Origin: Blastocatellia bacterium | Lineage (GTDB): Bacteria > Acidobacteriota > Blastocatellia > RBC074 | NCBI GenBank assembly: GCA_031409955.1 | Contig: JANNYF010000152.1 | Location: forward strand, 7,070-71,069 | Reading direction: 5' to 3' | DNA length: 64,000 bases | Shown here: positions 34,005 through 62,350 of the stretch, in pieces | Layout: every line of letters starts with the position of its first letter | How positions within the stretch are numbered: position 1 is the stretch's first letter | Made by a program: the position numbers and the translations under genes | The notes under the pieces: model-generated | Database searches by the model: none | Told to the model about the DNA's origin: nothing | Seen by the model: only the letters and a program-made list of their open reading frames with translations

Positions 34005-34102
34005 AGAGAGTCAGAGAGTCTGGAGAGTCGTGAAAATCTCGGACTCTCCAGACTCTCTGGACTCTATAAACTCTCCAGACTCCCTGACTCTCCAGACTTT
34101 TC
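34005..34102. repeat. Inverted nonamer tandem-repeat element (GGAGAGTCT)n ... (AGACTCTCC)n
   Basis: Three purine-rich units, then about six pyrimidine-rich units ending AGACTTTTC directly before the ATG at 34103. Confidence 0.85.
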
Positions 34103-35320
34103 ATGCTTACCTCCTACCTCCTGATTCCTCTGCTCTCTCTTGCGCCCTGTGTTTTGTGGCTGTGGTATTTCTACAGCCGGAGCCTCTACAAACGCCCGTC
34201 GTTGCGGGTGATTGCTCTGACGTTTCTGCTGGGCAGTGTGGCGACGCTGATTGCGATTCCGCTGAATTTATGGGGGCAATCGCTGTTTCTGAATCTGTTC
34301 GGCCCCGGCGTTTGGACACGCGTGCTGGTGCTGTTTCTGGTGGTTGGCCCGGTCGAAGAATTGTGCAAACTTTTAGCGGTTGCAGTGTATGCCTATCGTC
34401 GCCGCGAATTCGATGAACCGTTGGATGGTGTGATTTACAGCGCGACTGGCGCACTTGGTTTTGCCGCCATCGAGAACGTCATTTACCTGTCACAAAACAA
34501 CCCGCTGTTGGTGTTGTTGCGCGGCCCGCTGTCCAATCCGGGACACGCGCTGTTTTCTTCGTTCTGGGGCATGAGTTTGAGCCGTGCGAAATCCGCCCCG
34601 AATATGGTTACGCAACGCTTTCCCATTATCCTGCGCGGGTGGGTGATCGCATCGCTGCTGCACAGCACCTTTGATGTATTGTTATTGGCTTCGGAACGCA
34701 TCAGCATCCTGCTGTTTTACGTCGTCATCGCCGCGTTAGTTGCCTTGTTTTTCTGGGTGCGCAAGCAGATTCGTTTTCACCGCGATACATCGCCGCACCG
34801 CGAAGGCACAATGCTTTTGCAGATTATCAACCTCTGCGAAAACTGCGGCACGAAAGGCATCGCGGGCGAGCCGTGCCTGAAATGTCAGAGCATTGTTCCC
34901 GCGCCGCCGGACTCACCCGTTTGCCCGGTCTGCGCTTCGATCAATCGCGCCGAAGCGAATTTCTGTTTGCGTTGCGGCGCGAATCTGAAATTGACGGCAG
35001 CAGAGAATTTGGATCATCGCCCGCATTTGATTTCTGTCTCCACCGAAGGACAGGAATCACTGGCCTGCATTTTGAATCGCAACGAAATCTTTATTGGGCG
35101 CACGCTGAACAACGATTTCGTGATTGAGCATCCGTCCGTTTCCAAACGCCACGCCCAAATCACGGCCACCAACGGCACCCACACGGTCACTGATTTAGCC
35201 AGCAGCAACGGCACCTTCATCAACGGGCAGCGCATCTCAACCACCACCAAACTTGAAGACGGTTGTGAAGTCCGCTTCGGGCGCGCGCGCTACGTCTACC
35301 GCCAAAACCGAAGCCAATAG
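34103..35320 (+). CDS. PrsW-family intramembrane metalloprotease fused to double zinc ribbon and FHA
   Basis: GPVEELCK (EExxK), GFAAIEN (FxxxE), HALF, HSTFD; CENC..CLKC..CPVC..CLRC; IGR..VSKRHA..SSNGT. Confidence 0.9.
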   Translation: MLTSYLLIPLLSLAPCVLWLWYFYSRSLYKRPSLRVIALTFLLGSVATLIAIPLNLWGQSLFLNLFGPGVWTRVLVLFLVVGPVEELCKLLAVAVYAYRRREFDEPLDGVIYSATGALGFAAIENVIYLSQNNPLLVLLRGPLSNPGHALFSSFWGMSLSRAKSAPNMVTQRFPIILRGWVIASLLHSTFDVLLLASERISILLFYVVIAALVALFFWVRKQIRFHRDTSPHREGTMLLQIINLCENCGTKGIAGEPCLKCQSIVPAPPDSPVCPVCASINRAEANFCLRCGANLKLTAAENLDHRPHLISVSTEGQESLACILNRNEIFIGRTLNNDFVIEHPSVSKRHAQITATNGTHTVTDLASSNGTFINGQRISTTTKLEDGCEVRFGRARYVYRQNRSQ

Positions 35321-35417
35321 CGATGGTTGCCCTCTTGCTCTCTCCCTCTTTCGCCCCGTCCCTCTTTCTCTCCCTCCTGCGCACTGGTACAATGCGCCTC
35401 TGATCCCCGAAGACCTA

Positions 35418-35615
35418 ATGGAACTTATGCTGCCGTTAAAGCACGTGACCGAACAAGACAAGCGCGCGTTGACTTTATACTTTGCCATCGCGTTGCTCGG
35501 CGCGGCGTGTGTGGTTTTTGCAATGCTGTACAAAGCAGATTTTCACGTCGGTAAAAAAGCGGACGCCGAACAATCACCAACCCCCGCGCCAAAGCCAACG
35601 CCCCGCAATCGCTAA
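35418..35615 (+). CDS. Small single-TM protein (65 aa)
   Basis: One hydrophobic helix and a Pro-rich tail; TAATG overlap with lnt. Confidence 0.65.
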   Translation: MELMLPLKHVTEQDKRALTLYFAIALLGAACVVFAMLYKADFHVGKKADAEQSPTPAPKPTPRNR

Positions 35616-37243
35616 TGAATATTGCCTCCCGCCGCATTTATCACTGGCTCGCCGCCGTTGTCTCAGGAGCGTTGCTGGTGCTGTCCTTCCCCAAATTTGA
35701 GTTCAGTTTTTTAGCCTGGATCGCACTTGCGCCCTTGTTGTTTGTGCTGACACAAGCTGAGCAAACCTTGCGCCGAGCATTTGGCTTGGGCTGGGTCACA
35801 GGCTTCGTGTTTTTCTTTTTCTCATGCAACTGGATCACGCATTCGATGATTCGGTATGGCGGAATGAATGTGGGTTTGGCGTATGCGGTCGCAGTGCTGT
35901 TCAGCGCAATTATCGGATTGTTCCCGGCGCTGTTTGCACTGGCGACGGTGCGCTTGCAAAAAGTTTTCGGGCTTTGGGCGTTGGGTGCTACGCCGTTGCT
36001 TTGGGTAGCGACGGAATGGTTGCGAGCAATAATGACCGGCGTAACGTGGAATGCGCTGGGCGTGTCGCAAGGCAGTCAGTTTACGGTTGCACGTTTCGCG
36101 CAAATCGGCGGGGTTGAGTTAATTAGTTGCAGTCTTGTTGCGACAAGTGCTGCGCTGATATTGCTGATGAACATCAAAACCCCAGCGGCAAAACGAATCC
36201 TCGTACTATTTTTATTCGTGGCGCTGGCATTTGTGCTGGTGGAGCGGGGAACTGCTCCGTCCCCCTTCACTAAAGTTAAGCCAATCGAAATCGCTGTCGC
36301 AGGCATTCAGCCCAACCTGCCGGTTGACATCCTGACGCATCCCGATGAATTCACACAGCGCAACACCAGTGGGCTGGAAACAAATCTCAAGCTCACGCGA
36401 GATGCCATCAATGAAACCCCGAACAAAAAAGCCGACCTCATCGTGTGGGCGGAATCGCCGCTCGTGCTGAATTACGAACAGGACGAAACCGCGCGGAACA
36501 AACTCAATGCGCTGGCCAAAGAGTACAACGCACATCTGCTTTTCAGTGCATTGGGACGCGATGGCGAGCAGGTTTACAACAGCGTACAAACGATTACACC
36601 GAACGACAAAGCACTGAAACGCTACGACAAAATGCGTCTCGTACCGTTTGGCGAATACGTGCCGTTGCGGGCGGTACTGGGCTGGTTCGTACCCGCGATG
36701 ATTGGTGATTTCACGCCGGGCAACACGGCGACGGTCAATTCGCTCAAGCTGGCGACAGAAGTTTCGGTTGTCCAAAACGATGAGACGAACGGCGAAGTGG
36801 CGCTCGAACGCACGACGAGTTTCGTCAAAGTCGGCACCTTCATTTGCTACGAAGCGGCTTATCCCAATCTGGTGCGGCAATTTGTTAACAACGGCGCAAC
36901 GCTGCTCATCAATGTTTCTGACGATGCGTGGTTTGGGAATTCTGCCGGAGCCGTGCAGCATCTGAATCACGCGCGCATGCGAGCGATTGAAAACAACCGC
37001 GATATTGTGCGCGTCACCAACAGCGGCGTTTCGGCCTTGATTACCGCGACTGGCGAAGTCGTTGCTCCCTTGCCGATGTTCGCCGCAGCCAGCAAAGTGT
37101 GGACGGCGGAAGAGCGCAAAGGTTTGACGTTCTATGCGCGGTACGGCGATTGGTTCGCCATGCTGAGCGTGGTCATTACAGCTATCGCCATTGGGGCCAG
37201 CTTCGTTTATCATTCGCGCGCCCCAGAAAAATCTCAGATTTGA
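35615..37243 (+). CDS. lnt: Apolipoprotein N-acyltransferase
   Basis: N-terminal TM bundle and nitrilase triad WAE, YDKMRLVPFGEY, ICYE; RAIEN, RVTNSGVS. Confidence 0.96.
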   Translation: MNIASRRIYHWLAAVVSGALLVLSFPKFEFSFLAWIALAPLLFVLTQAEQTLRRAFGLGWVTGFVFFFFSCNWITHSMIRYGGMNVGLAYAVAVLFSAIIGLFPALFALATVRLQKVFGLWALGATPLLWVATEWLRAIMTGVTWNALGVSQGSQFTVARFAQIGGVELISCSLVATSAALILLMNIKTPAAKRILVLFLFVALAFVLVERGTAPSPFTKVKPIEIAVAGIQPNLPVDILTHPDEFTQRNTSGLETNLKLTRDAINETPNKKADLIVWAESPLVLNYEQDETARNKLNALAKEYNAHLLFSALGRDGEQVYNSVQTITPNDKALKRYDKMRLVPFGEYVPLRAVLGWFVPAMIGDFTPGNTATVNSLKLATEVSVVQNDETNGEVALERTTSFVKVGTFICYEAAYPNLVRQFVNNGATLLINVSDDAWFGNSAGAVQHLNHARMRAIENNRDIVRVTNSGVSALITATGEVVAPLPMFAAASKVWTAEERKGLTFYARYGDWFAMLSVVITAIAIGASFVYHSRAPEKSQI

Positions 37244-37306
37244 GATTGGAAATTTGAGATAGCTGTTCCCTACATCTCAAATCTCAAATCTCAAATCTCA
37301 AATCTC
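37238..37306. repeat. Inverted heptamer element (TTTGAGA)n ... (ATCTCAA)4
   Basis: Left arm includes the lnt stop; the perfect ATCTCAA x4 array ends 2 nt before the ATG at 37309. Confidence 0.88.
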
Positions 37307-37308
37307 TT

Positions 37309-38301
37309 ATGCCGTTGCTGGAAGTCAAAAACCTGAAAACCTATTTTGCGACCGCGCGCGGCGAAGTGCGGTCGGTGGATGATGTATCGTTCACGCTCGA
37401 CAGCGGCGAAACGCTCTGTGTTGTCGGCGAATCCGGCTGCGGCAAATCGGTGACGGCGCTTTCGATTATGCGATTGGTCGCGTCTCCGGGTTACATCGCA
37501 GGCGGCGAGATTTTGTTTGAAGGCCGCGACCTGCTAGAGCTTAGCGCAGACGAAATGCGCAAGCTGCGCGGCGACGATATCGCCATGATTTTTCAAGACC
37601 CAATGACGTCGCTGAACCCGGTCTACACAGTCGGCGAACAGATTGCCGAAGCCATTCGCTTACATCGCGGCGTCTCAAACAAAGAAGCCTGGAATCAAGC
37701 CATCGAAGGCATGCGCGATGTAGCGATTCCATCGCCCGAATCCCGCGCCAAAACCTATCCGCACGAAATGTCCGGCGGGATGCGGCAACGCGTGATGATT
37801 GCGATGGCGCTGGCCTGCGACCCCAAACTGCTGATTGCTGATGAACCAACGACCGCGCTGGACGTGACGATTCAAGCGCAGATTTTGCAAGAACTGGCCG
37901 AATTGCAAACCAAACGCCAACTCGGCTTGTTGCTCATCACCCACGACCTCGGCGTTGTCGCAGAAACCGCAGATCGCGTCGCTGTGATGTACGCTGGAAA
38001 AATTGTCGAAGAAGCCCCGGTGCGCGAAATCTTTGCGCGCCCGCGTCATCCGTACACCGAAGGTTTGCTGCGCGCGGTTCCGCAACTCGGCGCAAAAGGC
38101 CATCAAACGCGCTTGCAAACCATCGAAGGCGTCGTGCCAAATCCGTTGGAATTGCCGCCCGGCTGCCGCTTCGCACCGCGCTGTCAGCACGCGCAAGAGC
38201 AATGCCGAACGGGTGAAATCGCGTTGGCAAATGCGGGCGAGGCGCATCTGTCGCGGTGTGTGCGCGTGAAGGAAATTTATAAAGAAGGTATAATTTGCTA
38301 G
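37309..38301 (+). CDS. oppD: Oligopeptide/dipeptide ABC transporter ATP-binding subunit (OppD/DppD type)
   Basis: [24 protein letters not shown] and C-terminal oligo_HPY cysteines. Confidence 0.9.
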
Positions 38302-38370
38302 ATTTCCCCTCATCCAGCAAAGTTGCGCTGCGCTGCTAATTTAATTTTAGCCGGCAATAAGGAGTTCGTT

Positions 38371-38658
38371 ATGGACGTAAAATCTGCTGTTCAAGTGGCA
38401 GTTCAATATATGAAAGATTTGTTCGCCTCTGAGCAAATAACCAATTTAGGATTAGAAGAGGTCGAGTATGACGATCATACAAACGATTGGATAGTAACCA
38501 TTGGGTTTTCCCGGCCCTGGGATTACCCACAAAGCAGCATCTTGCCAGGAATTGTTGTAAATTCATCTGCTCCACCAAAAAGAGCGTACAAAACCGTCAT
38601 AATTAACGACGGCACAGAAAAAATCCTTTCGGTGAAAAATCGTGAGATAAAACTCTAA
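38371..38658 (+). CDS. Hypothetical protein (95 aa), partner of the PIN gene
   Basis: SD AAGGAG; AT-rich codons; stop directly abuts the PIN ATG. Confidence 0.75.
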   Translation: MDVKSAVQVAVQYMKDLFASEQITNLGLEEVEYDDHTNDWIVTIGFSRPWDYPQSSILPGIVVNSSAPPKRAYKTVIINDGTEKILSVKNREIKL

Positions 38659-39123
38659 ATGGCTTCAGTAATCGTAGACGCCAATTTGTTAGTTCTCTTA
38701 CTGGTTGGGATTACCGACCGAGCGTTTATTTCTAAGCACAAGAAAACAAGAAGTTTTACCGAAGAGGACTTCGATCTCTTGACGATTTTCTTGTCGCAAT
38801 ATCAAAGTATAGTAGTAACGCCTAACATCCTTACTGAAACCTCTAATCTGGCAGGTTTGATAGGTGAACCTAATCGCTCATTTATTTTTGAGACCCTGAA
38901 AGTCTTATTGAAAGCCTATCAAGAGATTTATTTACCAAGCTCGACCATTTCCGACAATTTGCATTTTACTAGCTTAGGCATAACAGATTGCGGAATCATT
39001 GAAACACTGAGCAAGGAAGAGAATACGGAGTTAATTACGACGGATCTTGATTTATATTTGGCGGCGGCCAGTAGTGGAAAGAGAGTTTATAATTTCAACC
39101 ATTTGAGGGCTGCTTACCTATAG
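38659..39123 (+). CDS. PIN domain protein (putative ribonuclease)
   Basis: IVDANLL, ILTETSNL, GITDCGI and ITTDLDL give the four acidic PIN residues. Confidence 0.85.
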   Translation: MASVIVDANLLVLLLVGITDRAFISKHKKTRSFTEEDFDLLTIFLSQYQSIVVTPNILTETSNLAGLIGEPNRSFIFETLKVLLKAYQEIYLPSSTISDNLHFTSLGITDCGIIETLSKEENTELITTDLDLYLAAASSGKRVYNFNHLRAAYL

Positions 39124-40176: not shown

Positions 40177-40263
40177 ACAGTAGTCAGTAGCGGCCCCTTA
40201 TCTTTACTGCTGTACTCTGAAGCCTTCCTACCGATTACTGCCACCTATTAACAAGGAGGCAAT

Positions 40264-41028: not shown

Positions 41029-41076
41029 CAAGAAAAGGCACGGGACTGGTGCGCCAAGCCCGTGCCTATCTCTCCG

Positions 41077-45242: not shown

Positions 45243-46307
45243 TCAATCATTGGCACTGCCCGCACGTTGCCGATACACATACGCCAACAACTCTGCCACC
45301 GCGCGAAACAGTTCGGCGGGAATCGCGCGACCAATTTCGACGGTGCGATAAAGTGAGCGCGCCAGGGGCGGATTTTCAATCACAGGCACGTCATGCGCCC
45401 GCGCAATTTCACGGATGCGTTTGGCCATATCGTCCGCCCCTTTTGCCACCACCACAGGCGCGGCGTGGTTTTCGCGGTCATAGCGCAGCGCCACGGCAAA
45501 GTGGGTCGGGTTGGTGACGACAACATCGGCTTTGGGCACTTCCGTTGCGATGTGGCGTTGCAACATGGCCCGCGCCAGGCGGCGGCGCTGGCCTTTGACC
45601 ATCGGGTCGCCTTCCTGTTGGCGGTACTCGTCTTTGATTTCCTGCTTGGTCATCTTCAAGGACTTCTCGTGCTTGAACCAACCGTAGCCATAATCCACGA
45701 CGGCAAAAACCAAAACGACCATTCCCGCGCGCAATCCCAACCGATAGAGCAAATCGCCAACCGTCATCATAATGTGCGGGGCTGGTGCGCCGACCAGGGC
45801 CGGAGCTTCGCCCATCGCTTGCCTTACGGTTTCGTAACAAACCGCGACCATCACACCGATCACCAAAATGCCTTTGGCAAATTGCACCACACCTTCCATG
45901 CCCATTGAGCGTTTGAGATTGGCGAGCGGATTGAAGCGTTCGGCTTTTGGCTTGAGCGCTTCCGGCGTGAACAGAAACCCGCCTTGGGCAACGTTGCTGG
46001 CAACACCGGCAATCAGGACGGCGGCAATAATCGGCAACGACAGCACGGCCAGGCGTGACAACGCTTCCATCAGCAGTTGGGTGGCGACTAAGGGCGTGAG
46101 CGCGGCATCACTGCTGGCGTGCAACATCGTGCCGGTCATAAACACGGTAATGTGTTGGAGGATTTGTTCGCTCAGCATCCGCAGCATCAACAGCGCGGCG
46201 ATGAACCCAACCGCCGCAGGCAACTCCGGGCGACGCGCGATCTGCCCTTTTTTCCGCGCATCTTCGCGGCGTTTTGGAGTCGGTTTTTCAGTGCGATTTG
46301 AGGCCAT
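45243..46307 (-). CDS. flhB: Flagellar export switch protein FlhB
   Basis: RTEKPTPKR, KMTKQEIKDE..EGDP and TNPTH autocleavage motif. Confidence 0.96.
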   Translation of the reverse strand: MASNRTEKPTPKRREDARKKGQIARRPELPAAVGFIAALLMLRMLSEQILQHITVFMTGTMLHASSDAALTPLVATQLLMEALSRLAVLSLPIIAAVLIAGVASNVAQGGFLFTPEALKPKAERFNPLANLKRSMGMEGVVQFAKGILVIGVMVAVCYETVRQAMGEAPALVGAPAPHIMMTVGDLLYRLGLRAGMVVLVFAVVDYGYGWFKHEKSLKMTKQEIKDEYRQQEGDPMVKGQRRRLARAMLQRHIATEVPKADVVVTNPTHFAVALRYDRENHAAPVVVAKGADDMAKRIREIARAHDVPVIENPPLARSLYRTVEIGRAIPAELFRAVAELLAYVYRQRAGSAND

Positions 46308-46396
46308 GAAAAGTCTGGAGAGTCTGGGGAGTCTGGAGAGTCTGGAGAGTCTCGGACTTCAAAGACTCTATGGACTCTCCAGACTCTCCAGACTCA
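46308..46396. repeat. Inverted nonamer tandem-repeat element between fliR and flhB
   Basis: (AGTCTGGAG)x4-5 and (AGACTCTCC)n; begins in the fliR stop and ends at the flhB ATG. Confidence 0.88.
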
Positions 46397-47170
46397 CATT
46401 GTTCCCAACATTCGTTCGACCGTGTGGCGCAGCGTGGTGAAGGCAGTGCGGATGGCGCCGGGCAAAAAGAAAACGGAGGCACCAATCAACCACAAGCCGA
46501 CGGCGATTTTGAGCGGAAAACCGAGAATCAGGATTTCTAATTTTGGCGCGACGCGTCCGGCCACCGCCAATAAACTTTCCACCGCCAACAACACGATGAT
46601 GGCCGGAGCCGCCAGCGCGACACCAACTGCCAACGCATCGGCGGAAAGCCGCAACATGATTTCGGCCATTGAACCGTTCATCCCGAAGCCGCCCGGAGAA
46701 ACAAATTGAAAACTGCGCACCGTGATTTCCAACATCCAATGGTGTCCGTCCGCGCCCAGCATCACCATTAGCCCCAGCATCTGCGCCAAAATCCCCAGCG
46801 CGGCGGTTTGCGCCTGGGTCGCCGGATCAATCGTACTCGCCAGGGATAAGCCCATTTGAAAGCCAACCAGGCTCGCCGCCACTTCCAACGCGCTGAACAC
46901 CAAACGTCCGGCAAAGCCTAAAATAAAGCCGATCATCAACTCTCCGCCGAGCAACAAGGTCAGGCTGACCACCTCCGTCGGCGGCGTTGGCACGTGCGGC
47001 AGCAGCACCGGCGTGACGATCAAGGCGATACCCATAGCCAGCAGCGCGCGGACTTTGCTATTCACCGCTTGGTGATTCCAAAACGGCGCGAACGTGACGA
47101 CGCCTCCCACGCGGGCCAGAACGACCACGAAGATCAAGACCGGGCGCAGTGGGATGATGATTGGTTCCAT
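46394..47170 (-). CDS. fliR: Flagellar biosynthesis protein FliR
   Basis: ARVGG..FAP, GFQMGLSLA..DP, DGHH, LAAP, GFPLKI. Confidence 0.95.
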   Translation of the reverse strand: MEPIIIPLRPVLIFVVVLARVGGVVTFAPFWNHQAVNSKVRALLAMGIALIVTPVLLPHVPTPPTEVVSLTLLLGGELMIGFILGFAGRLVFSALEVAASLVGFQMGLSLASTIDPATQAQTAALGILAQMLGLMVMLGADGHHWMLEITVRSFQFVSPGGFGMNGSMAEIMLRLSADALAVGVALAAPAIIVLLAVESLLAVAGRVAPKLEILILGFPLKIAVGLWLIGASVFFLPGAIRTAFTTLRHTVERMLGTM

Positions 47171-47275
47171 GGCGGGTGCGGCACGGGGGAATGTAAGCGA
47201 CCTGAACTTCTCGGAAGGATGCTGACAGCAGCTCAGGTCGCTTACGTTTCCCGTACTGCATCGGTATCCCAACCC

Positions 47276-47545
47276 TCACTTGATATACAGCGTGAAATCG
47301 CCAAACAGTGAGTTCGTGAACGTTACCAACACTTCTAAAATCCACGGAAACGTCAGCAAAAACACGCCAAAGATCGCAGCGACGCGCGGCGCAAACGAAA
47401 AGGTTTGATCCTGAATTGACGTCAGCGTTTGAATCAAACTCACGCCGACTCCCACGGTAACGGCAACGCCGAGCATCGGCCCAATGATCGCCAGTAAAGT
47501 TTCCAGCGCGCGCTGAATCAGTGTCATTACAAGTGCATCAGACAT
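47276..47545 (-). CDS. fliQ: Flagellar biosynthesis protein FliQ
   Basis: GVSLIQTLTSIQDQTFSFAPR..PW. Confidence 0.94.
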   Translation of the reverse strand: MSDALVMTLIQRALETLLAIIGPMLGVAVTVGVGVSLIQTLTSIQDQTFSFAPRVAAIFGVFLLTFPWILEVLVTFTNSLFGDFTLYIK

Positions 47546-47557
47546 AAGCAACCTCAT

Positions 47558-47624
47558 AGTCCAGGGAGTCTAGGGAGTCCGCGACTCTCTAGACTCCCTG
47601 GACTCTCTAGACTCTCCCAGACTT
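47558..47624. repeat. Inverted nonamer tandem-repeat element between fliP and fliQ
   Basis: AGTCCAGGG AGTCTAGGG AGTCC / GACTCTCTA GACTCCCTG GACTCTCTA GACTCTCC. Confidence 0.85.
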
Positions 47625-47626
47625 TC

Positions 47627-49340: not shown

Positions 49341-49997
49341 TTACATCTGTACAATGAAATCGGTGATGTAAATCGCTTCGATGTGAGGTTCTTCAATCGC
49401 CGCGCGTGCTGCTTTCAGCAGTTCTTTGCGCAAGATGGATTTGCCTTGTTGGGTCAAGATTTCATCGGAGGTTTTGGTGGTCAGCACAGCCAGCATAGCG
49501 TTGCGTACTCTGGTCACCAAGATCGGGTCCGCCTTCTCCTCTTTGGTTTCGCCCACGCCGATGCTGACTGACATTCGCAAATACCGCGAATCTTCGCTGT
49601 CCGCCAGGTTCACCACGAAGGGCGGCAATTCGATAATCTTTTTGACTTCTTTGTCTTCCGGCAAATCCAGCTTCTTGATGCTGAATTTTGGTTTGGCCGA
49701 TTTCCCCTCTTTGCCTGCTTCTGCGGCGGCGTGTTCATCGGCAGCCGGTTCCTCTTCTTCCTCTTCTTCCTCTTCTTCCTTTACGTCTTTTACTTTTTTA
49801 CTTTTCTTATCTTTCTCGGCTTTCTTGTCCTTTTCGGCGGTTTCCGCCTCAGCCGCATTGCCGCGTTTCAGAAAGAAGAACGCGCCCCCGCCACCCACTG
49901 CCAACACGACCACCGCGATGATGATGAGGAGCAATGGCTTTTTCTTTTTTGCGCTACCTTCTTCAGTTGCTGCAGCGGGTGCTGGTGTATCAGACAT
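49341..49997 (-). CDS. fliL: Flagellar basal body-associated protein FliL
   Basis: N-terminal TM, K/E-rich linker, PFVVNLAD..RYL, IYITDFIVQ. Confidence 0.94.
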   Translation of the reverse strand: MSDTPAPAAATEEGSAKKKKPLLLIIIAVVVLAVGGGGAFFFLKRGNAAEAETAEKDKKAEKDKKSKKVKDVKEEEEEEEEEEPAADEHAAAEAGKEGKSAKPKFSIKKLDLPEDKEVKKIIELPPFVVNLADSEDSRYLRMSVSIGVGETKEEKADPILVTRVRNAMLAVLTTKTSDEILTQQGKSILRKELLKAARAAIEEPHIEAIYITDFIVQM

Positions 49998-50033
49998 AAG
50001 ACCTCCAAATAAATGACCTCCGTCGAAGTCATA

Positions 50034-50049
50034 AGCGATTTGCGTGCCG
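50034..50049 (-). promoter_or_regulatory. Sigma54 (-24/-12) promoter upstream of fliL
   Basis: Minus strand CGGCACGCAAATCGCT gives GG-N10-GC. Confidence 0.65.
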
Positions 50050-50171
50050 CTCTTGGTCATTACATAGTTGGGCGCGAATCTCACGGGTTTCTAAGGATTT
50101 ATTCGAGAGCGGCTGAAACCCGGATGTTTGCAGAGAGCAGAAACTGACGGGAGTCCGGTAGTCAGGCACGG

Positions 50172-52549: not shown

Positions 52550-52577
52550 CGTGCGTGCTAACCTGATTTGTCAATAC

Positions 52578-52664
52578 AGTTAGGAATTAGGAATTAGGAG
52601 TTAGGATATGTGGCCACGAGCGTGAAAACAAAACCTAAATCCCAGCTCCTAATTCCTAACTCCT
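52578..52664. repeat. Inverted heptamer element (ARTTAGG)4 ... (CCTAAyT)n
   Basis: AGTTAGG AATTAGG AATTAGG AGTTAGG and CCTAAAT CCCAGCT CCTAATT CCTAACT, just after the flgE stop. Confidence 0.85.
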
Positions 52665-52673
52665 GTTCGGTCT

Positions 52674-53945
52674 CTATTGAATCTGGAGCAGGTCTTGCAA
52701 CGTTTGGCTGATCGTGGTGATGACCCGCGAGTTCGCCTGGAATCCACGTTGCGCGACGATCAGGTTCGTAAATTCTGTCGCAATGTCCACGTTGCTTTGC
52801 TCCAGCGAAGCGCCGACAATCGTGCCTCTGCCACCGCTCCCTGGCGTTCCAATCGAAGGCTGCCCGGAAGCAATGGTTTCACCATACATGTTATTGCCCA
52901 AACGTCGCAGGCTGGACTGCGAATTGAACGTGGCGATGCTCATTTGCCCCAGCAAGCGGCGCTGCCCATTGCTGAAGACGGCATAGAGTCCGCCATTTTG
53001 ATCGGGCGATTGCGCCAACCCCACGAGTTCCCCCGCAGCAAAACCATCCTGCTCGGTGGAAGCAACGCTGGAAGGCGAAGCATAGTTGGTGAAATTCGCG
53101 GCCCCGCTACCAACCGGCGGCGCAGGCTGACGCAGGTTGATCGTCACGGAAGGCAACGTCGCGCCATTCAGAACCGCAGCGGGTGCAACCACTGCCAGCG
53201 CAGTGGGAGCCGTCAGCAATCCATCCGAATCGAATGTCACCGCCACCGGAGCCGCACTGGCCGCACCACCATTGACACTGGTGGTGGCCGCAGTGCCATC
53301 CACTTGCGCTTGCATGAGGTATGAACCATCCGCCTGTTTGGTAAAGACTAAATCCATTTTGTGGGCCGCGCCTTTTGAATCATAAACGTTCACCAGCGCG
53401 TGAAAATCTGAGGCCACCGGGTCTTTACTATTCAGATTCATTCGAAAGGTCGCTTCGGACGTAATGACCGGAGCCGCCGTCTCTCCGATAGGCACGTTGA
53501 GCGAAGTTAACGATGCGCCCGATGGAATGACGCCATTGACTGCGGCATAACCTTGCACAGCCTGTCCGCTGGGGCTGACGATATTTCCTGACCTATCTAA
53601 CGCGAAATCTCCGGCGCGCGTGTACGTCAACGCACCCGAAGAATCCGCGACGACAAAGAATCCATTGCCTTCAATCGCTGCATTGGTGGCCGTATCCGTG
53701 AGGTTCAATGTCCCTTGGGCAAAATTCGTCGGCGTCGCCGCCAATCGCACACCTTTCCCAAATTGCAAGGCCGTGCCTGCGCCGTTGAGCCGGATGCCGG
53801 AAGAATTTGTGAAGATATCCGCGAAACTCACTGAGCTGCTCTTGAACCCAACTGTATTGGCATTGGCGATGTTATTGCCGGAAACACTGATTGTTTCGGA
53901 AGCAGCATTTAAGCCCGAAAGAGCGGTCGAAAATGAAAATCCCAT
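52674..53945 (-). CDS. flgE: Flagellar hook protein FlgE
   Basis: GNNIANANTVGFK, YTRAGDF, LEQSNVDIATEFTNLIVAQRGFQAN. Confidence 0.97.
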   Translation of the reverse strand: MGFSFSTALSGLNAASETISVSGNNIANANTVGFKSSSVSFADIFTNSSGIRLNGAGTALQFGKGVRLAATPTNFAQGTLNLTDTATNAAIEGNGFFVVADSSGALTYTRAGDFALDRSGNIVSPSGQAVQGYAAVNGVIPSGASLTSLNVPIGETAAPVITSEATFRMNLNSKDPVASDFHALVNVYDSKGAAHKMDLVFTKQADGSYLMQAQVDGTAATTSVNGGAASAAPVAVTFDSDGLLTAPTALAVVAPAAVLNGATLPSVTINLRQPAPPVGSGAANFTNYASPSSVASTEQDGFAAGELVGLAQSPDQNGGLYAVFSNGQRRLLGQMSIATFNSQSSLRRLGNNMYGETIASGQPSIGTPGSGGRGTIVGASLEQSNVDIATEFTNLIVAQRGFQANSRVITTISQTLQDLLQIQ

Positions 53946-56933: not shown

Positions 56934-58306
56934 GCGTTACCCTCCCGCGCACCAACGGTCATCAAGTGTGAAACCGCGTCCGCAATCGTGACGGCATCCT
57001 CCCGCTCCTGTCGCAAGTAGCCGATCATTTGGTCGTAGCGCGCGATGGCTTCGTCCACGCGTCGGTTGCTGCCGGATTGATACGCGCCAATGTTAATAAG
57101 GTCTTCGGCCTTTTCGTAGGCCGCCAACAGCTCGCGCAAATGCCCGGCAGCCGCGCGATGTTCTTTGGTTGTGACTTCAGAAAACAACCGCGAATTGCTG
57201 TGCAGAATATCAATGCATGGATAGTGATTGCGGGCCGCCAATGCGCGCGAAAGCATAATGTGTCCGTCCAGAATCGAGCGCACAGAATCGGCGATGGGTT
57301 CGTTCATATCGTCACCTTCGACCAGCACCGTGTAAAAGCCGGTGATCGAGCCGCCCGCTGAGAAATTGCCCGCGCGTTCGAGCAGACGCGGTAACAACGC
57401 AAACACCGAGGGCGTGTAGCCGCGCGACGAAGGCGGTTCGCCTGCTGCCAAACCAATCTCGCGCTGCGCCATCGCAAAGCGCGTCACCGAATCCATAATC
57501 AACAACACGTTCGCGCCCTGGTCTTTGAAGTATTCCGCCATCGCTGTCGCCGCCATTGCCGCACGAATGCGCACCAGCGGCGCATCATCTGAAGTCGAAA
57601 CAACCAGCACGGAACGCTTCATGCCTTCTTCGCCGAGTTCGCGTTCGATGAAGCCCCGAACCTCGCGGCCTCGTTCACCGATCAACGCGATCACGTTCAA
57701 ATCCGCCGCCGTGTTTTTCGCCATCATGCCGAGCAACGTGGATTTGCCGACGCCGGAACCACCGAAGATGCCGATGCGCTGTCCGACGCCTACGGTCAGC
57801 AGCCCGTCAATTGAGCGCACGCCCGTGCCGAGTGGTTCGCTGATGTTGGCGCGCGCCAGTGGGTTGGTGGAATCGCGATGCAGCGGGTAATGATCTTTGG
57901 CTTCAATCGGGCCGCGGTCATCCAATGGCCTGCCCATCGCATCAATCACGCGACCTAAAAACCGCTCGCCGACGGGAACGCTGGCGGACGTACCTGCGGC
58001 AATAACTGAATCGCCTGCGCGCACGCGTGGCATTCGTCCCAGCGGCATCAACAACACGGTTTCATCGCGGAAGCCAATGACTTCAAGCTCTGCATCCGGC
58101 TCGCCCTCCTGCCCTTTGAGCAAACACATATCGCCGACCGACACGGCAGGCCCGTTGGATTCGACGACCAGGCCAACGGCGCGCGAAATAATGCCGGACG
58201 AGGTCATCGGCTGCATAGCGTTGAGCCGCTTGAAATACGGTGACAGCAGCGACGACGCGTCGGCCTGTGCATATTGCTCAATGGTGTGTTGTCTGATCCA
58301 GCCCAT
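56930..58306 (-). CDS. fliI: Flagellum-specific ATPase FliI
   Basis: GGSGVGKS, ALIGERGREV, MDSVTRFAMAQRE, LLERAG, GAYQSG. Confidence 0.96.
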   Translation of the reverse strand: MGWIRQHTIEQYAQADASSLLSPYFKRLNAMQPMTSSGIISRAVGLVVESNGPAVSVGDMCLLKGQEGEPDAELEVIGFRDETVLLMPLGRMPRVRAGDSVIAAGTSASVPVGERFLGRVIDAMGRPLDDRGPIEAKDHYPLHRDSTNPLARANISEPLGTGVRSIDGLLTVGVGQRIGIFGGSGVGKSTLLGMMAKNTAADLNVIALIGERGREVRGFIERELGEEGMKRSVLVVSTSDDAPLVRIRAAMAATAMAEYFKDQGANVLLIMDSVTRFAMAQREIGLAAGEPPSSRGYTPSVFALLPRLLERAGNFSAGGSITGFYTVLVEGDDMNEPIADSVRSILDGHIMLSRALAARNHYPCIDILHSNSRLFSEVTTKEHRAAAGHLRELLAAYEKAEDLINIGAYQSGSNRRVDEAIARYDQMIGYLRQEREDAVTIADAVSHLMTVGAREGNA

Positions 58307-58327
58307 TGTTATTCCTTATTAGTTGAA

Positions 58328-58432
58328 CCACGGGGAACACGGGGGCACGGGGAGGAAGGAGAGTTGGTAATACGAAGAAACGGCTGGCACGGATTTGCCG
58401 TGTCACCGCGTCTCTCCCCGTGTTCCCCGTGG
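58328..58432. repeat. Inverted repeat element (CACGGGGRA)n between fliH and fliI
   Basis: CCACGGGGAACACGGGG ... CCCCGTGTTCCCCGTGG with an inner GGCACGG/CCGTGTC hairpin. Confidence 0.8.
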
Positions 58433-58460
58433 TAAAACAGTCTACTCAATCCCTACTCCT

Positions 58461-59183
58461 TCATTGAAAAAAGCCGCGCTCAATGCTGGCAAATTGTTGT
58501 TCGATGCGGGCGTCAATGTCGCCATGTTCGCTTTGAATAATGCAGCCGCCGCGCCCGACGGAGGCGTCCGCCACAAATTCCAAAGCGCTGGTGTTGCTCA
58601 ATTCGTGACGACGTGCGGTGACGTATTCAAAGTCTTCGGGATGCAGCAACACCTTGGCGACTGCCCGTGGATGTAAGCGTTCGAGTGCCACGCGCGCCAA
58701 CGTCAACACGATGTCTGAATCAGTGGTCACTTCCCGATGCACAACTTTGCGCGCCACCTCCAACGCGAGTTTTACCAGATCGCGTTCCGCTCGCGCCGCA
58801 ATCAATGCGTAGAGAGGTTCCAGTTCGGACAGAGTGTGCGAGAGTTTTTCGCGCAGGTCTTCGGCGGCAGTGTTCACGTCTTCCGCCACTTTGGCACGCG
58901 CGGCGGCAAACCCTGTTTCATACGCGTCGCTCTCAATTTGAGAGACGCGTGCCTGCGCCTCGGCCAGCAAGGCATTCGCTTTCGCCTCTGCCGTTGCGAT
59001 GAGTTCGCGCGCTTGTCGTTCGACCTCCTCCAGGCGGAACTGCGGCGCGTGCATTTCTGCGGTGGACGGACTTTCAGCGCTCTCCCAAAATCCTTCGGCG
59101 ACCGATCCCGCTTGACGGGGAATAGTGAAGGGCGCAAAAGCCACGCCAACTGGTGGCCCGGCCTTGAATAACCTAGCTGACAT
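58461..59183 (-). CDS. fliH: Flagellar assembly protein FliH
   Basis: AYETGFAAA (AxxxG) repeat, LALEVARKVV, GGCIIQSEHGDIDARI; located between fliG and fliI. Confidence 0.92.
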   Translation of the reverse strand: MSARLFKAGPPVGVAFAPFTIPRQAGSVAEGFWESAESPSTAEMHAPQFRLEEVERQARELIATAEAKANALLAEAQARVSQIESDAYETGFAAARAKVAEDVNTAAEDLREKLSHTLSELEPLYALIAARAERDLVKLALEVARKVVHREVTTDSDIVLTLARVALERLHPRAVAKVLLHPEDFEYVTARRHELSNTSALEFVADASVGRGGCIIQSEHGDIDARIEQQFASIERGFFQ

Positions 59184-60291
59184 AGCCATCCTCTCCGCCT
59201 TCGCCGCCGCCGAGGTTGATGATGCCCTGCTCTTCGAGTTCGCGCATAACGTCCACGACTTCGCGTTGCGCTCCGGTAACATCTTTGATTTTGACCTGTC
59301 CCATGAAATCCATTTCTTCCTTCATCATCTCGACCGCGCGCGAGGACATATTCGAGAAAAAGCGGCTTTGCAATTCGGGGGTCGTGCCCTTGAGTGCAAG
59401 CGCCAGCACCTTCTTGTCCACGCGTTGCAGCATTTCACGAATGCCGAGATCGTCCACCAGCAACAGATCATCAAAGGTCATCATCAAGTTGCGAATTGCC
59501 AGCGCGAGATCGGGATTGCCGGCTTCAATTTCTTCCAGCATTTTCTGCGCGACATCGCGTTCGAGTCGGTTGCAGATTTCCGCCACGGGACGCACGCCGC
59601 CGACCGCCTGGCGATTGTCGCTGCCGATGGCTTTGAGCTTGTGATCCAGCACGACCGAAATCTGGCGAATGACATCCTGCGAAATGGATTGCAGGCTCGC
59701 CATGCGCAATGCAATGTCAGCGCGTTGGGCTTCCGGCAAACAACGCAATGTGGCCGCCGCCGTCTGTGGTTCGAGATGCGCTAAAACCAGGGCGATGGTT
59801 TGCGGATGTTCGTTCTGAAACAGCTTCGAGAGTTGCTGCGGATCAATCTTTTGCAAGGCGTCGAAGCCAACTGTAGATTCGAGCGAGCGCGTGATGCGAT
59901 CCAGCAAGCGGCGCGCGGTTTCCGGCCCATACGCTTTGGTGATGAGGCGCTTCGCATAATCAATGCCACCCGTCACCACGTAGTTGCGCGCGGTCAGCAA
60001 TTGCTCGAACTCCTGCAAAATTTCGTTGGCAACGTCGGCGGGGATTTGTTGGAGCGAAGCTAATTCGCGCGAGATGGCTTGCACTTCATCTTCTTCCAAA
60101 AAGCGGAAGACTTCGCTAATCGCATCGTCATCCAATGACGCACACAGAATGGCGGCCTTGCGCGTACCCGCCAACGTCTCCGTCATGCGGCGCATAGTAT
60201 TGCCCGCCTGCGCTATCGGCAGAGAAGAAGGGCGCTCATCTTCATCTTCGAGCGCTTCGAGCATTTGTGCGGCGGTTGCGGCTTCAGCCAT
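59173..60291 (-). CDS. fliG: Flagellar motor switch protein FliG
   Basis: KAAIL, GGIDYAK, EHPQTIALVL, GGVRPVAEI, MFTF-like MMTFDDL, ALALKG. Confidence 0.96.
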   Translation of the reverse strand: MAEAATAAQMLEALEDEDERPSSLPIAQAGNTMRRMTETLAGTRKAAILCASLDDDAISEVFRFLEEDEVQAISRELASLQQIPADVANEILQEFEQLLTARNYVVTGGIDYAKRLITKAYGPETARRLLDRITRSLESTVGFDALQKIDPQQLSKLFQNEHPQTIALVLAHLEPQTAAATLRCLPEAQRADIALRMASLQSISQDVIRQISVVLDHKLKAIGSDNRQAVGGVRPVAEICNRLERDVAQKMLEEIEAGNPDLALAIRNLMMTFDDLLLVDDLGIREMLQRVDKKVLALALKGTTPELQSRFFSNMSSRAVEMMKEEMDFMGQVKIKDVTGAQREVVDVMRELEEQGIINLGGGEGGEDGYVS

Positions 60292-60305
60292 AGTCAGTTC
60301 CTCTA

Positions 60306-60404
60306 AAAAAGGCAAAGGCAAAGATTGACTCTCAATTGATCTGAAATTTGAAATTTGAAATTTGAGATGACAATGATTTTTCCGAATCCCACTTTTGCCT
60401 TTTG
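60306..60404. repeat. Nested repeat element between fliF and fliG
   Basis: Outer AAAAGGCAAAG / CTTTTGCCTTTT IR enclosing (GAAATTT)3. Confidence 0.75.
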
Positions 60405-60411
60405 ATTTTTT

Positions 60412-62256
60412 TTAGCTCCTTGTTTCGTGCAGCCACGTGCGCAAAGTCATTGCCACAAGCTCGGGTTCCTGGCGGCTGCGTTCGGTTAATCGTTCGCGCA
60501 AAATCAGCGGCGAAGATAACTCGACTTCGATTGCGCTGGCCATTGCGCCGGACGCTATGCCGCCGGGCTTCGCGCTTGTGGCGAATTCCTGCGGCGCATT
60601 CATTTCGGCCTCTAATTCGGCGACGGTGCGCGGCGTAGTGTCACTCAACAACTGCGCGACGGTGGTGGCTTCGGACGAGGGCGCGGCAAGCTGGTTCTCA
60701 CGTTTTTCTTCGATCCGCGCATTGCCCGTTCCGACGGTACCCGCCGTGTCTGCGGTTGCGCCCACCTCTGCTGCCGCCAACAATTTAGGCTCGGCTGCGC
60801 CCGATGCCTTCAGCGCTTTTTGCGCGGGACGAACAACGAAGAAAATTAATAACAACGCGGCCAGCACGAGCGAGCCGTATTTGATTCCGGTCAGCACCAT
60901 GTCGCGATACCGATCCAACCAGGATGGCTTGCTCGCTTCGTCGTCCATTTTGTTGAAGGGGAACGATTCGACGACCACTTGATCGCCGCGTTTGGTATCA
61001 ATACCAATGGCCGCCGCCACCAAATCCTGAATCCGCTTCAGCTCTTCAGGGGCCCGCGCAACGGACGCGCCGTTCACCGCTTTGTGATCTATCAACACCG
61101 AAGCAGACAGCCGCGTGACGCGCCCCAGGCCGCCAATCGTGCGGCGAATGGTCTTGTCAATTTCGTAATTGAGGGTTGAGGCGTTGCGCTGATCGGGAGC
61201 CATCTGCGGCGGCATTGCAGGCGTGGGCTGTGGTGTCGCTTGCGACTGTCCATTGGCAGGCGGCGTGGGCGTGGGCGTGGGTATCGGAGTAGGCGGCGGT
61301 ACCCGATTGTTAGGATCATTGCCGCGCGTGCCGACAACGCCGCTGATCGCCGGGCCGGGCGTGCGATATTCGGCGGAGCTTTGTTGCGAACGAATGACGG
61401 CAGATTGGGGGTCGTATTTTTCTTCGGTTTGCTCAACCTGGCTGAAGTCCACGTCTGCTGCAACATCAGCCTGCACGTGACCTTTGCCGACCACTGGTTC
61501 CAGCAAGGCAATGATGCGCGCGGCGGTTTCAGTTTCCAGCTTCTGCCGCGTTTCCAGATGTGAATTGAAGATATTTGCGCCGCCGGCTGCCGCCCCGTTG
61601 CGACCGGGCGCAGACAACAATCGCCCCCGATTGTCCATCACGGTGACATCTGCCGGATCAAGCCCTTCTGCCGAGGAAGCGACCAGATTGACAATCGCAT
61701 CCGTGCGTTCGCGCGCCAGTTCGCGGGATTGCCGCATGCGCAAAACGACGGAGGCTTTTCCCTTTTCTTTCTTTTCGGCAAAGACTGATTCGCGTGATGG
61801 TGTGATGTGAACGCGCGCGGTTTCGACTTCGTCCAGGCCTTCCAACGTGCGAGCGAGTTCGCCTTCGAGCGCGCGTTGGTAATTCACTTTTTGCGAGAAA
61901 TCCGTCGCGCCGAAATTGGCACGATCAAAAATATCGAAGCCCACATGACCGCCTGTCAACGTATTGGACGCCATTTGCAACCGCAGTTCCGGCACGCGCT
62001 CCGACGGCACACTGATCGTGCTGCCATTCGCGGAAAGGCGATAGGGAACATTGGACGCTTTCAGTTGTTCGATGATCGCTTGTGCGTCCGTGCCTTTAAG
62101 GTCAGAAAACAGCACGCCATATTCGGTTTGCGAACCGAAATAGGCCAGCGTGACCAACAACCCCAAGGTGCCGACCACAGAGCCGCCGACAGCCAACCGC
62201 TGCCGCAGCGTGAGCCGGTTCCACTGAGCAATCCATTGCGAGAGAAATTCAGGCAT
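60412..62256 (-). CDS. fliF: Flagellar MS-ring protein FliF
   Basis: YGVLFSDL, HVGFDIFD, YQRALEGELART, ARVHI, KASVVL, RLSASVLI. Confidence 0.97.
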   Translation of the reverse strand: MPEFLSQWIAQWNRLTLRQRLAVGGSVVGTLGLLVTLAYFGSQTEYGVLFSDLKGTDAQAIIEQLKASNVPYRLSANGSTISVPSERVPELRLQMASNTLTGGHVGFDIFDRANFGATDFSQKVNYQRALEGELARTLEGLDEVETARVHITPSRESVFAEKKEKGKASVVLRMRQSRELARERTDAIVNLVASSAEGLDPADVTVMDNRGRLLSAPGRNGAAAGGANIFNSHLETRQKLETETAARIIALLEPVVGKGHVQADVAADVDFSQVEQTEEKYDPQSAVIRSQQSSAEYRTPGPAISGVVGTRGNDPNNRVPPPTPIPTPTPTPPANGQSQATPQPTPAMPPQMAPDQRNASTLNYEIDKTIRRTIGGLGRVTRLSASVLIDHKAVNGASVARAPEELKRIQDLVAAAIGIDTKRGDQVVVESFPFNKMDDEASKPSWLDRYRDMVLTGIKYGSLVLAALLLIFFVVRPAQKALKASGAAEPKLLAAAEVGATADTAGTVGTGNARIEEKRENQLAAPSSEATTVAQLLSDTTPRTVAELEAEMNAPQEFATSAKPGGIASGAMASAIEVELSSPLILRERLTERSRQEPELVAMTLRTWLHETRS

Positions 62257-62268
62257 TCGGGTCTAAAA

Positions 62269-62350
62269 AGTCGGAGAGTCGGGAGAGTCGGAGAGTTTGG
62301 AGAGTCGAGAGAGTCAATAGAGTCAGGACTCTTCAGACCCTAATTGACTC
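62269..62350. repeat. Inverted nonamer tandem-repeat element between fliE and fliF
   Basis: (AGTCGGAG(A))n x5-6 and a GACTC-containing partner arm that starts at the fliE stop. Confidence 0.82.

Follow-up and report, generated by a model that had tools for sequence, protein, structure and literature searches.

Tandem-nonamer palindromes between the genes of a Blastocatellia bacterium: a dispersed family of intergenic hairpins whose sequence turns over at conserved junctions

How two unrelated genes, prsW-FHA of a signalling cluster and flhB of a flagellar operon, come to be preceded by the same 19 nucleotides, start codon included, is the question raised by a 64,000-nucleotide stretch of contig JANNYF010000152.1 of a Blastocatellia bacterium, which is referred to here in its entirety as the window. 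The two genes stand behind elements made of repeated nine-nucleotide units, and two further elements of the kind lie before fliQ and fliF. A sequence-only reading of the window had taken these for copies of an element, mobile or converting, by which a translation start is delivered or targeted and which may govern initiation through GGAG words resembling the Shine-Dalgarno (SD) sequence. The elements, termed E1 to E4 (Table 1), are members of a lineage-specific family of non-coding intergenic palindromes of the Blastocatellia, here a group of Acidobacteria from soil and sediment. On balance we favour the view that the family resembles the repetitive extragenic palindromes (REP elements) and the miniature transposable elements with inverted repeats (MITEs), that it is driven by processes acting on DNA, and that its hairpins are tolerated or mildly functional as intercistronic or 3' untranslated structures.

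The nonamer GGAGAGTCT occurs six times in the window against 0.15 expected, a number that none of 100 shuffles reached, and when one mismatch is allowed there are 21 matches against 5.7 expected, 17 of them inside E1 to E4. Exact copies are confined to E2 and E3, apart from a lone copy at 31133 within a coding sequence (CDS), and E1 and E4 carry one-mismatch variants (AGAGAGTCT, GGAGAGTCG). Clustering of the words GAGTC and GACTC returns exactly four arrays, so that the four copies of the earlier reading stand at the positions given for them; Tandem Repeats Finder (TRF) likewise reports period-9 arrays of 2.6-6.4 copies in each. Every element is intergenic, occupies its entire spacer, and has GAGTC-type units on its 5' side and GACTC-type units (the inverse array, AGACTCTCC) on its 3' side. 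E1, E2 and E3 are hairpins with stems of 25-35 bp and RNA fold energies of -55, -55.5 and -43.5 kcal/mol (z -6.3, -7.3 and -5.1), while the fold of E4 is weak (-23 kcal/mol, z -0.8), decay of the 5' arm having left it with about seven direct CU-rich units.

In their details the four copies follow one plan. E1 has about three GAGTC-type units, the loop GTGAAAATCTCG and about six GACTC-type units, the last of which, AGACTTTTC, adjoins the ATG. E2 reaches from the fliR stop TGA (46394-46396) to the same last unit, AGACTTTTC, beside the flhB ATG (46307), and E3 opens after the fliP stop TAA with GAAAGTCTGG, the inverse of that terminal unit. E4 retains two or three degenerate 5' units and its CU-rich 3' units (CGACTCTCC...), ends as GACTTTTTAGACCCGA-ATG and terminates in GACTTTTT. 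The TGA stop of the preceding gene runs into the first unit, TGAGTC, in both E2 and E4. That all four copies share one orientation is uninformative, because the order GGAGAGTCT...AGACTCTCC is identical on both strands of a palindrome. A rule of arm-length asymmetry was also considered and dropped: the surplus is 3' in E1, E4 and several heptamer arrays, and 16 oriented copies from other genomes split 7:7.

The family extends well beyond the window. One genome per GTDB species was scanned with the 17-mer dimer GGAGAGTCTGGAGAGTC, which gave at least 109 stretches; among the matches listed, about 61 come from more than 20 metagenome-assembled genomes (MAGs) labelled Blastocatellia, Pyrinomonadaceae or 'Chloracidobacterium', and the remainder are single matches in unrelated taxa, as chance predicts for a 17-mer. 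The acidobacterial matches in that set are mostly compact hairpins of 70-130 nt with the layout FFFF-loop-RRRR, like the window copies, and reach about 10 matched loci per MAG; the window holds four copies in 64 kb. Homologues of the window FlhB and PrsW are labelled Blastocatellia, Pyrinomonadaceae or Acidobacteria as well. The general architecture is a 5' arm of GGAGAGTCT-type tandem units and a 3' arm of inverse units that usually ends in a T-rich degenerate unit, AGACTTTT; the elements begin (A)nGTCTGGAGAGTC and end GACTCTCCAGAC(T)n. Freshwater-sediment metagenomes contain the window sequence, and in four source metagenomes the E2 array is covered at 15-40 times the depth of its flanks, to which other species in the sample may contribute. 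These metagenomes hold dozens of family copies, and the array forms the end of many contigs whose flanks differ.

The copies of one MAG have their loop sequence in common, whichever way round they lie on the plus strand (for example AAAAGAAAGAATCTAGTT, found four times in SMAG_U3489, and AGAAG(C/A)CAAATGCCTTT, twice in H3_16), and therefore appear to descend from one progenitor per genome; such shared loops are evidence of dispersal by copying. Together with the raised array depth and the presence in more than 20 Blastocatellia species-level genomes, they establish a dispersed repeat family rather than a chance expansion. This much of the earlier proposal of a mobile or converting element holds, whereas the delivery of start codons, to which we return, does not. 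As for the association with flagellar genes that it had noted, three of the four window copies do lie in flagellar operons, but elsewhere the family flanks permeases, genes of the kinase cluster and many others, and the association reflects the content of this window.

The placement of the elements relative to genes is consistent with such a family. Gene contexts were taken from crude calls of open reading frames (ORFs) around 43 compact elements, of which 11 were unclassifiable; where ORFs were called on both sides, 20 elements lie between co-directional, 7 between convergent and 1 between divergent genes. Element ends that face a stop codon are a median of 7 nt away from it (32 of 35 within 25 nt), and those facing a start codon a median of 14 nt (within 25 nt in 19 of 25). 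An association with start codons, as proposed before, is thus real, yet it is no stronger than that with stop codons, which is at least as tight; the elements fill short spacers and avoid promoter regions. REP elements lie mainly between co-directional or convergent ORFs and near 3' ends (PMC3733652), and the placement found here matches theirs.

What sets these elements apart is seen at orthologous junctions, where the sequence changes and the structure is kept. The fliP-fliQ-fliR-flhB junctions were compared in seven genomes, the window and six relatives with FlhB identities of 91% (L115 and L117), 86% (L001), 85% (L118), 84% (L003) and 78% (L004), and the kinase/phosphatase-prsW-LNT region in four, the window, L119, L120 and L121. 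Between fliP and fliQ each of the seven has a tandem array with an inverted partner array, and at least four unit families are used: GGAGAGTCT in the window and L115, AATTGAG in L117 and L003, TTAGCTA in L001, and ATTTGAG in L118 and L004. Between fliQ and fliR five relatives have clear heptamer hairpins of AATTGAG (L115, L117, L003) or AGTTGTC (L118, L001), and L004 has weak structure (z -0.5). The fliR-flhB spacer holds nonamer hairpins in the window and L115. In L117 (2239-2561) the loop between nonamer-like arms is occupied by a palindromic MITE some 250 nt long, the whole spacer folding at -181 kcal/mol, and in L118 outer nonamer units surround a heptamer (AGTAGAA) hairpin. L003 retains at this junction a 15-nt remnant, GTCCATAGATTTTTC, whose alignment with the last two units clearly indicates collapse; L004 has an unrelated spacer of 52 nt. 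Treating L118 and L001 as sisters, so as to polarise the loss between fliR and flhB, was given up, their FlhB identity being just 83%.

The same holds outside this operon. Between SpoIIE and PrsW a nonamer-type hairpin is found in four of four genomes, at -61 to -75 kcal/mol in the comparison, with unit pairs that co-vary in both arms (GGAGAGTCT/AGACTCTCC, GGAAAAGTCT/AGACTTTCC, TCGAGTTTG/CAAACTCGA), and between LNT and ABC the same ATCTCAA hairpin is present in four of four. In distant relatives, with FliE 66-71% identical, the fliE-fliF spacer holds tandem-heptamer arrays; those of L124, L126 and L127 are hairpins ending at the ATG, and the contig of L122 ends inside its array. Overall, orthologous spacers have an identity of 0.30-0.68, as against 0.75-0.92 for the adjacent CDS, and the energy z-scores are significant at most junctions of the closer relatives and weak or non-significant in L004 and at the fliP-fliQ junction of L003.

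The nonamer family is one within a clade-wide class of hairpins made of tandem units of 7-10 nt, which take up most of the short spacers. Tandem-repeat hairpins, or arrays in decay, can be made out by eye in about 13 of the window's intergenic spacers, and TRF reports period-7 arrays elsewhere in the window. When the class is defined as a tandem array of period 6-11 with an inverted partner no more than 160 nt away, its density per 10 kb is 1.41 in the window and 1.52 in nine syntenic relatives, as against 0.27 in 330 kb of control loci from other phyla. Rfam 15 gave no match at the gathering score anywhere in the window.

A set of processes acting on DNA could account for this behaviour. Replication slippage would change the number of units; unit number does vary between close relatives, which points to slippage. 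Template switching would copy one arm from the other, so that the arms would stay complementary as the unit drifts. The arms are 85-100% complementary although the orthologues diverge by 30-70%, and in the SpoIIE-PrsW hairpin of L121 the order of unit variants is mirrored between the arms (by eye); both features fit arm-to-arm copying by template switching. Such switching is documented to create and to homogenise or repair hairpin arms (PMC8794818, PMC13100816). Further, other hairpin elements or MITEs may insert into the loop and the structure may later collapse, which would leave the basal units beside the genes old and the apex young. In the Holy_42 MAG the two nonamer arrays flank a conserved core some 180 nt long (...AGCTCCGTAGGAGCGCAATGTTTATAG...CTATAAACATTTCGTCCCTAACGGGAC...) at eight or more loci (L031 at 2697-2881, L006, L017, L019, L036, L040, L075 and L083), some of them between tandem paralogous permease genes of the FtsX/MacB type. 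The nested loops, together with the conserved base and variable apex, suggest that loops serve as insertion targets in cycles of nesting and collapse.

The mismatches in the stems were used to look for selection on the sense RNA, which would favour G.U over A.C. The reverse was found: in 42 hairpins with known gene direction the transition mismatches on the sense strand number 124 G.T and 167 A.C (p = 0.014), and the antisense RNA folds better in 35 of 49 cases. Because the samples include non-independent orthologues, this is taken as an absence of support for sense-RNA selection and not as proof of the opposite.

Several points weigh against a family driven by DNA processes. The hairpins persist at the same junctions across a protein divergence of about 15-20%, and in the window the fliQ-fliR spacer holds a hairpin of unique sequence where the relatives have tandem-heptamer repeats; such persistence points to selection for a hairpin in itself and is not what a purely mutational model would lead one to expect. 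No mobilising enzyme or donor element was found, although the ORFs were not scanned for Y1 transposases; no direct duplication of a target site flanks E1 to E4; and no related insertion sequence (IS) was found, those with matching ends having been looked for within the fetched loci. The word mobile rests for this reason on the distribution of copies. Moreover, the crude ORF calls behind the gene contexts, and the wobble and antisense tests, which include orthologous sites and are partly non-independent, with modest effects (p of about 0.01), call for some caution; the locus turned up in no RNA run, and whatever is said of the elements as RNA is inferred from DNA.

The strongest of the other explanations, which we regard as possible but the less likely one, is that the hairpins are primarily selected RNA elements of the operon mRNAs, their tandem architecture being a by-product. 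They could possibly act as intercistronic stabilisers, as processing sites for RNase III or another enzyme, as partial terminators, or as bridges for reinitiation from stop to start. The occupation of the same junctions despite complete turnover of sequence, the replacement of repeats by a unique hairpin at the window's fliQ-fliR junction, the REP-like placement and the location of both stops and starts at the helix base all speak for this. Perfect stems of 25-35 bp are classical substrates of RNase III. About 40% of the copies in other MAGs show, by eye, an A-run, hairpin and T-run layout, with stems far longer than those of typical terminators; in the window the final letters are UUUUC for E1 and E2 and UUUUU for E4, and a U-run is absent from E3. 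However, an intrinsic terminator would have a short GC-rich stem with a 3-8 nt loop and, immediately behind it, a U-tract in at least 5 of 8 nt; most copies lack a proper U-tract, and a scan for consensus terminators flagged none of E1 to E4. The sense strand has no excess of G.U over A.C, if anything the reverse, and a junction can be empty without obvious harm, as in L001, where the fliR stop TAA is directly followed by the flhB ATG; in L004 hairpins are weak or absent (z -0.1 to -1.1). That hairpins outlast the turnover of their sequence speaks for some selective value, whereas the wobble result and the vacant L001 junction speak against their being strictly required.

If the hairpins do act in mRNA, their position offers some indication of how. 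E2 to E4 must, going by their location, be transcribed within the fliPQR-flhB and fliE-fliF operons. The upstream stop would then lie at the 5' base of the helix and the start 0-15 nt from its 3' base, with the last unit unpaired and rich in U and C before starts that lack an SD, where insertions would therefore be tolerated. This geometry is compatible with reinitiation by terminating ribosomes; REP-like stabilisation of mRNA, processing or attenuation are equally possible. A bolder and rather improbable version holds that Blastocatellia operons are organised around self-renewing palindromes, with hairpins at essentially every junction bridging a stop to an SD-less start. Template switching and nested insertion targeted to loops would regenerate the junction hairpins whatever their sequence, and ribosomes would reinitiate across them, in a bacterial counterpart of ribosome shunting, with the number of units tuning the coupling; fliP-Q-R-flhB, the kinase/phosphatase cluster and LNT-ABC would be the junctions concerned.

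The delivery or targeting of starts, with initiation governed by SD-like GGAG words, looks distinctly unlikely, in spite of the observation that prompted it. The 19-mer ACTCTCCAGACTTTTCATG is indeed identical in front of prsW and flhB, ATG included, where none is expected, and to the eye the likeness reaches further, to some 36 of 37 nt with a single indel. The start-facing ends lie near start codons, as counted above, and AGACTTT(T) followed by ATG within 0-9 nt recurs at at least eight further loci in other genomes. Moreover, the genes directly behind tandem-repeat hairpins in the window (RDD, SpoIIE, PrsW, ABC, FlhB, FliF and the gene 6808..7695, the exception being fliQ) lack an SD, none being present within 20 nt of the prsW, flhB or fliF starts, as against SD-like motifs before about 22 of 59 window genes (about 37%). 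The TAACTGA repeats of Beggiatoaceae, which lie close to the starts of SD-less genes, provide a precedent (PMC4679880).

Against this, stops are abutted more tightly and more often than starts, and seven elements stand between convergent genes, with no start close by, as against a single divergent one. The supposed sequestering or exposure of SD sequences finds no footing either, for 50-90 nt separate the GGAG words from the AUG downstream, which puts them beyond any SD window, and the AUG-proximal arm is CU-rich. The two start codons are both native. FlhB and PrsW relatives have the same length with 100% coverage, and the window PrsW is on record as a protein of 405 aa from ATG 34103, while an exact look-up of the window FlhB gave no entry; because protein lengths are kept and the PrsW record agrees, ATG 34103 and ATG 46307 are the true starts. 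The flhB ATG is moreover present in L001, which has no element, and in L003, which has the 15-nt remnant. No target duplication emerged from the comparison with an empty site, which sets TAA-ATG in L001 beside TGA-[86 nt]-ATG in the window.

The identity itself can be read more simply. At each orthologous site the conserved basal unit is CCAGACTTTTC-ATG; (A)nGTCTGG opens and CCAGAC(T)n closes many of the copies in other MAGs, and L120 has whole arrays of GGAAAAGTCT. The terminal AGACTTTTC is thus, to judge from these copies, the usual T-rich basal variant of AGACTCTCC, and the 19 bp are a family unit, a basal unit and a native ATG rather than a delivered start, juxtaposed because the element runs right up to the coding sequence. 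Two sites alone in the fetched data have the 14-mer CCAGACTTTTCATG, that of prsW in the window and in L120 and that of flhB in the window and in L118; the flhB site of L117 reads CCAGACTTCTCATG. The 14-mer is hence conserved orthologously at each site and not newly delivered, and the 19-mer at each site is, on this distribution, older than the splits between the sampled species.

It seems very improbable that the arrays are a binding platform, whether for CsrA on GGA, for a GANTC methyltransferase or regulator on GAGTC/GACTC, or as a signal resembling an uptake sequence. Each nonamer does hold a GGA and a GANTC site, the relative L004 has a csrA-fliW pair in its flagellar cluster, and three of the four window copies are within flagellar operons. 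However, the equivalent positions in relatives hold the motif-free units TTAGCTA, AATTGAG, AGTTGTC and ATCTCAA, the GGA words are buried in long stems, many non-flagellar genes are flanked by the family, and a spacing of 9 nt puts the sites off one face of the helix; the CsrA and GANTC ideas were rejected on the unrelated units at the same junctions. Chance low-complexity expansion or an assembly artefact, suggested by the breaking of short-read assemblies at the arrays, can practically be dismissed, as the observed counts are never reached by shuffles and the same elements turn up again in separate assemblies and samples (X1-X4), as they do at the orthologous sites of relatives that were assembled independently.

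Returning to the proposed family of DNA-driven palindromes, its nearest known counterparts are the REP, BIME and REPIN elements of Proteobacteria (PMC3733652, PMC3116915), which are of high copy number, as the present family may be, and are likewise short, non-coding, extragenic palindromes, lying no more than about 20 nt from 3' ends, occurring in clusters and persisting vertically within a lineage. They differ in having unique stems of 6-13 bp in place of 25-35 bp stems of tandem 9-nt (7-10-nt) units, and in the terminal GTAG or CGTC tag, none of which was found in E1 to E4 or the MAG copies. Here there are many unit families side by side, one giving way to another at a given site, and G.T pairing, a sign of RNA function in REPs, is not enriched on the sense strand. 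Genes resembling that of RAYT, the Y1/HUH transposase associated with REPs, are reported from other Acidobacteria, flanked by terminal inverted repeats (PMC3733652). The TAACTGA repeats of Beggiatoaceae, cyanobacteria and some Bacteroidetes (PMC4679880), and the cyanobacterial short tandemly repeated repetitive (STRR) heptamers and long simple sequence repeats, share with these elements tandem 7-nt units that are almost all intergenic, ends a few nucleotides from SD-less starts, a patchy lineage-specific distribution and variable copy number, and the period-9 and period-7 arrays of the window are tandem direct repeats with a unit of 5-11 nt, as in that class. The TAACTGA arrays are, in contrast, direct (169 direct sets and one inverted in BOGUAY), with one dominant unit that shows a strand preference relative to the gene, whereas the elements here have inverted partner arrays, many units and ends that adjoin stops too. 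MITEs, including Correia/NEMIS of Neisseria and minisatellite-containing forms (PMC10969869, PMC4596501), are also small, non-autonomous, intergenic palindromes that are co-transcribed and nested, but the elements here lack target-site duplications and distinct terminal inverted repeats, and their body is a tandem array.

There are further parallels. Mycobacterial interspersed repetitive units (MIRUs) are direct tandem units of 40-100 bp with short in-frame ORFs thought to mediate translational coupling; they too lie between operon genes, their ends overlap the upstream stop and downstream start, and their copy number varies by strain. E2, in contrast, is a hairpin without an ORF linking stop to start, the sole ORF at the fliR stop (GTG AGT CTG ... 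TAG) ending after 9 codons, far from the flhB ATG. REP loops serve as insertion targets for IS1397 and ISKpn1, and the hairpins here would resemble them as probable targets for other elements. Quasipalindrome correction, or short-range template switching, is reportedly known from the work of Ripley and Lovett. Its products resemble the hairpins described here, being one-step perfect inverted repeats with homogenised arms, formed at the DNA level (PMC8794818, PMC13100816); it has been described as a sporadic source of mutation, and driving a whole class of tandem-repeat palindromes across a genome is no part of that description. In the literature searched, no description was found of hairpins made from inverted arrays of short tandem units, in Acidobacteria or elsewhere, although this does not prove them new.

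Little has been written on intergenic repeats in the Acidobacteria, one of the most abundant soil phyla. If the behaviour seen here is genome-wide, it would constitute a natural system in which a hairpin is conserved while its sequence, unit length and repeat family turn over, and it would allow a clean test of whether stems evolve in compensation through DNA template switching or RNA selection. It would also provide a testable model for the translation of SD-less genes inside operons. Further, it would explain why Blastocatellia MAGs are fragmented at arrays and why longest-ORF calling runs into them.

Short-read assemblies break at the nonamer arrays (window 46302-46368; runs X1, X3, X4 and X5), and chimeric joints link E2 to E3 by a skip of 1240 nt, from 46351 to 47592; repeats of this kind are therefore probable sites of fragmentation or false joins in the clade's MAGs. 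The fliR gene is a case of the over-long call: its longest ORF (TTG 47272, 292 aa) is 102 nt, or about 34 codons, too long, and the conserved N-terminus MEPIIIPLRP begins at ATG 47170 (fliR 46394..47170), so that the comparison of fliQ-fliR among relatives places the true start at ATG 47170 and not at TTG 47272. For fliQ the probable start is ATG 47546, which follows a GAGG SD at 7 nt and from which the product matches the MSDALVM of its relatives; ATG 47557, in the last unit of E3, is probably not its start.

Table 1. Nonamer elements, copies of the 19-mer and other hairpins or arrays in the window (positions are those of the window).
Feature	Position	Strand	Context
E1	34005..34102	+	Spacer between the FHA-GAF-SpoIIE phosphatase gene (32262..33995) and prsW-FHA (34103..35320)
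E2	46308..46393	-	Fills the fliR-flhB spacer; nonamer hairpin
E3	47558..47626	-	Fills the fliP-fliQ spacer; nonamer hairpin
E4	62257..62348	-	Decayed copy in the fliE-fliF spacer
19-mer, copy 1	34087..34105	+	ACTCTCC-AGACTTTTC-ATG: last two units of the E1 3' arm and prsW start
19-mer, copy 2	46305..46323	-	Last two units of E2 and flhB start
TTAGCTA/CTAACAG heptamer hairpin	32165..32261	+	TPR-SpoIIE spacer; 3' array stops 4 nt before the ATG
GATTTGA/ATCTCAA heptamer hairpin	37228..37308	+	LNT-ABC spacer; 5' arm overlaps the LNT stop
TTAGGAA heptamer hairpin	52570..52673	-	Upstream of flgE (52674..53945)
Long hairpin with CACGGGGAA octamer/nonamer arms	58322..58438	-	fliH-fliI spacer
GGTCGGT heptamer hairpin	7698..7810		Divergent region; adjoins the start of the minus-strand gene 6808..7695
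(CAAATTT)3.4 array, decayed	60322..60411	-	Upstream of fliG
Unique-sequence hairpin, no tandem repeats	47171..47275	-	105-nt fliQ-fliR spacer; -50 kcal/mol, z -5.7

Among the other hairpins of the window, the 3' arm of that between LNT and ABC has five copies of its unit, and four to nine in relatives, and the CAAATTT unit found upstream of fliG recurs as a small palindromic copy at 63110-63163. The prsW-FHA gene is the last of a signalling cluster (28303-35320), syntenic in L119, L120 and L121, in which a small FHA protein, a Ser/Thr kinase-FHA protein, an RDD protein, a TPR protein, the FHA-GAF-SpoIIE (PP2C) phosphatase and PrsW-FHA follow one another. The spacer between ABC and Yip1 (40177-40263) and its orthologues in L119 to L121 contain an ordinary conserved hairpin (ACAGTAGTCAGTAG...CTACCGATTACTG) and a canonical SD, AAGGAGGC, 3-4 nt before the start; the organism therefore uses an SD where no repeat hairpin abuts the start.

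A near-perfect unique hairpin of 27 bp (GTAGCGCAACTTGCCGAGGTTGCGGTG and its inverse; -57.7 kcal/mol, without a T-run) at 16997-17093 fills the spacer of the convergent genes 16562..16996 (+) and 17094..18044 (-). In addition, 873 nt without a long ORF (15270-16142) follow the gene 12267..15269 for a protein of 1000 aa; this stretch is highly structured (-264 kcal/mol), has no Rfam match, and includes a hairpin ACTAACAG.../...GGTTAGT near 15295-15345 and TTTGATTTG repeats at 15349-15367. Within the flagellar region, in-frame tandem repeats at 49749-49838 (TTCCTCTTC 3.6 times and an 18-mer twice, the coding strand reading GAAGAGGAA) lie near the 5' end of the ORF 49341..50084, which is fliL by synteny; they would encode a Glu-rich stretch of low complexity, and the ORF is about 34 codons longer than the FliL of relatives.

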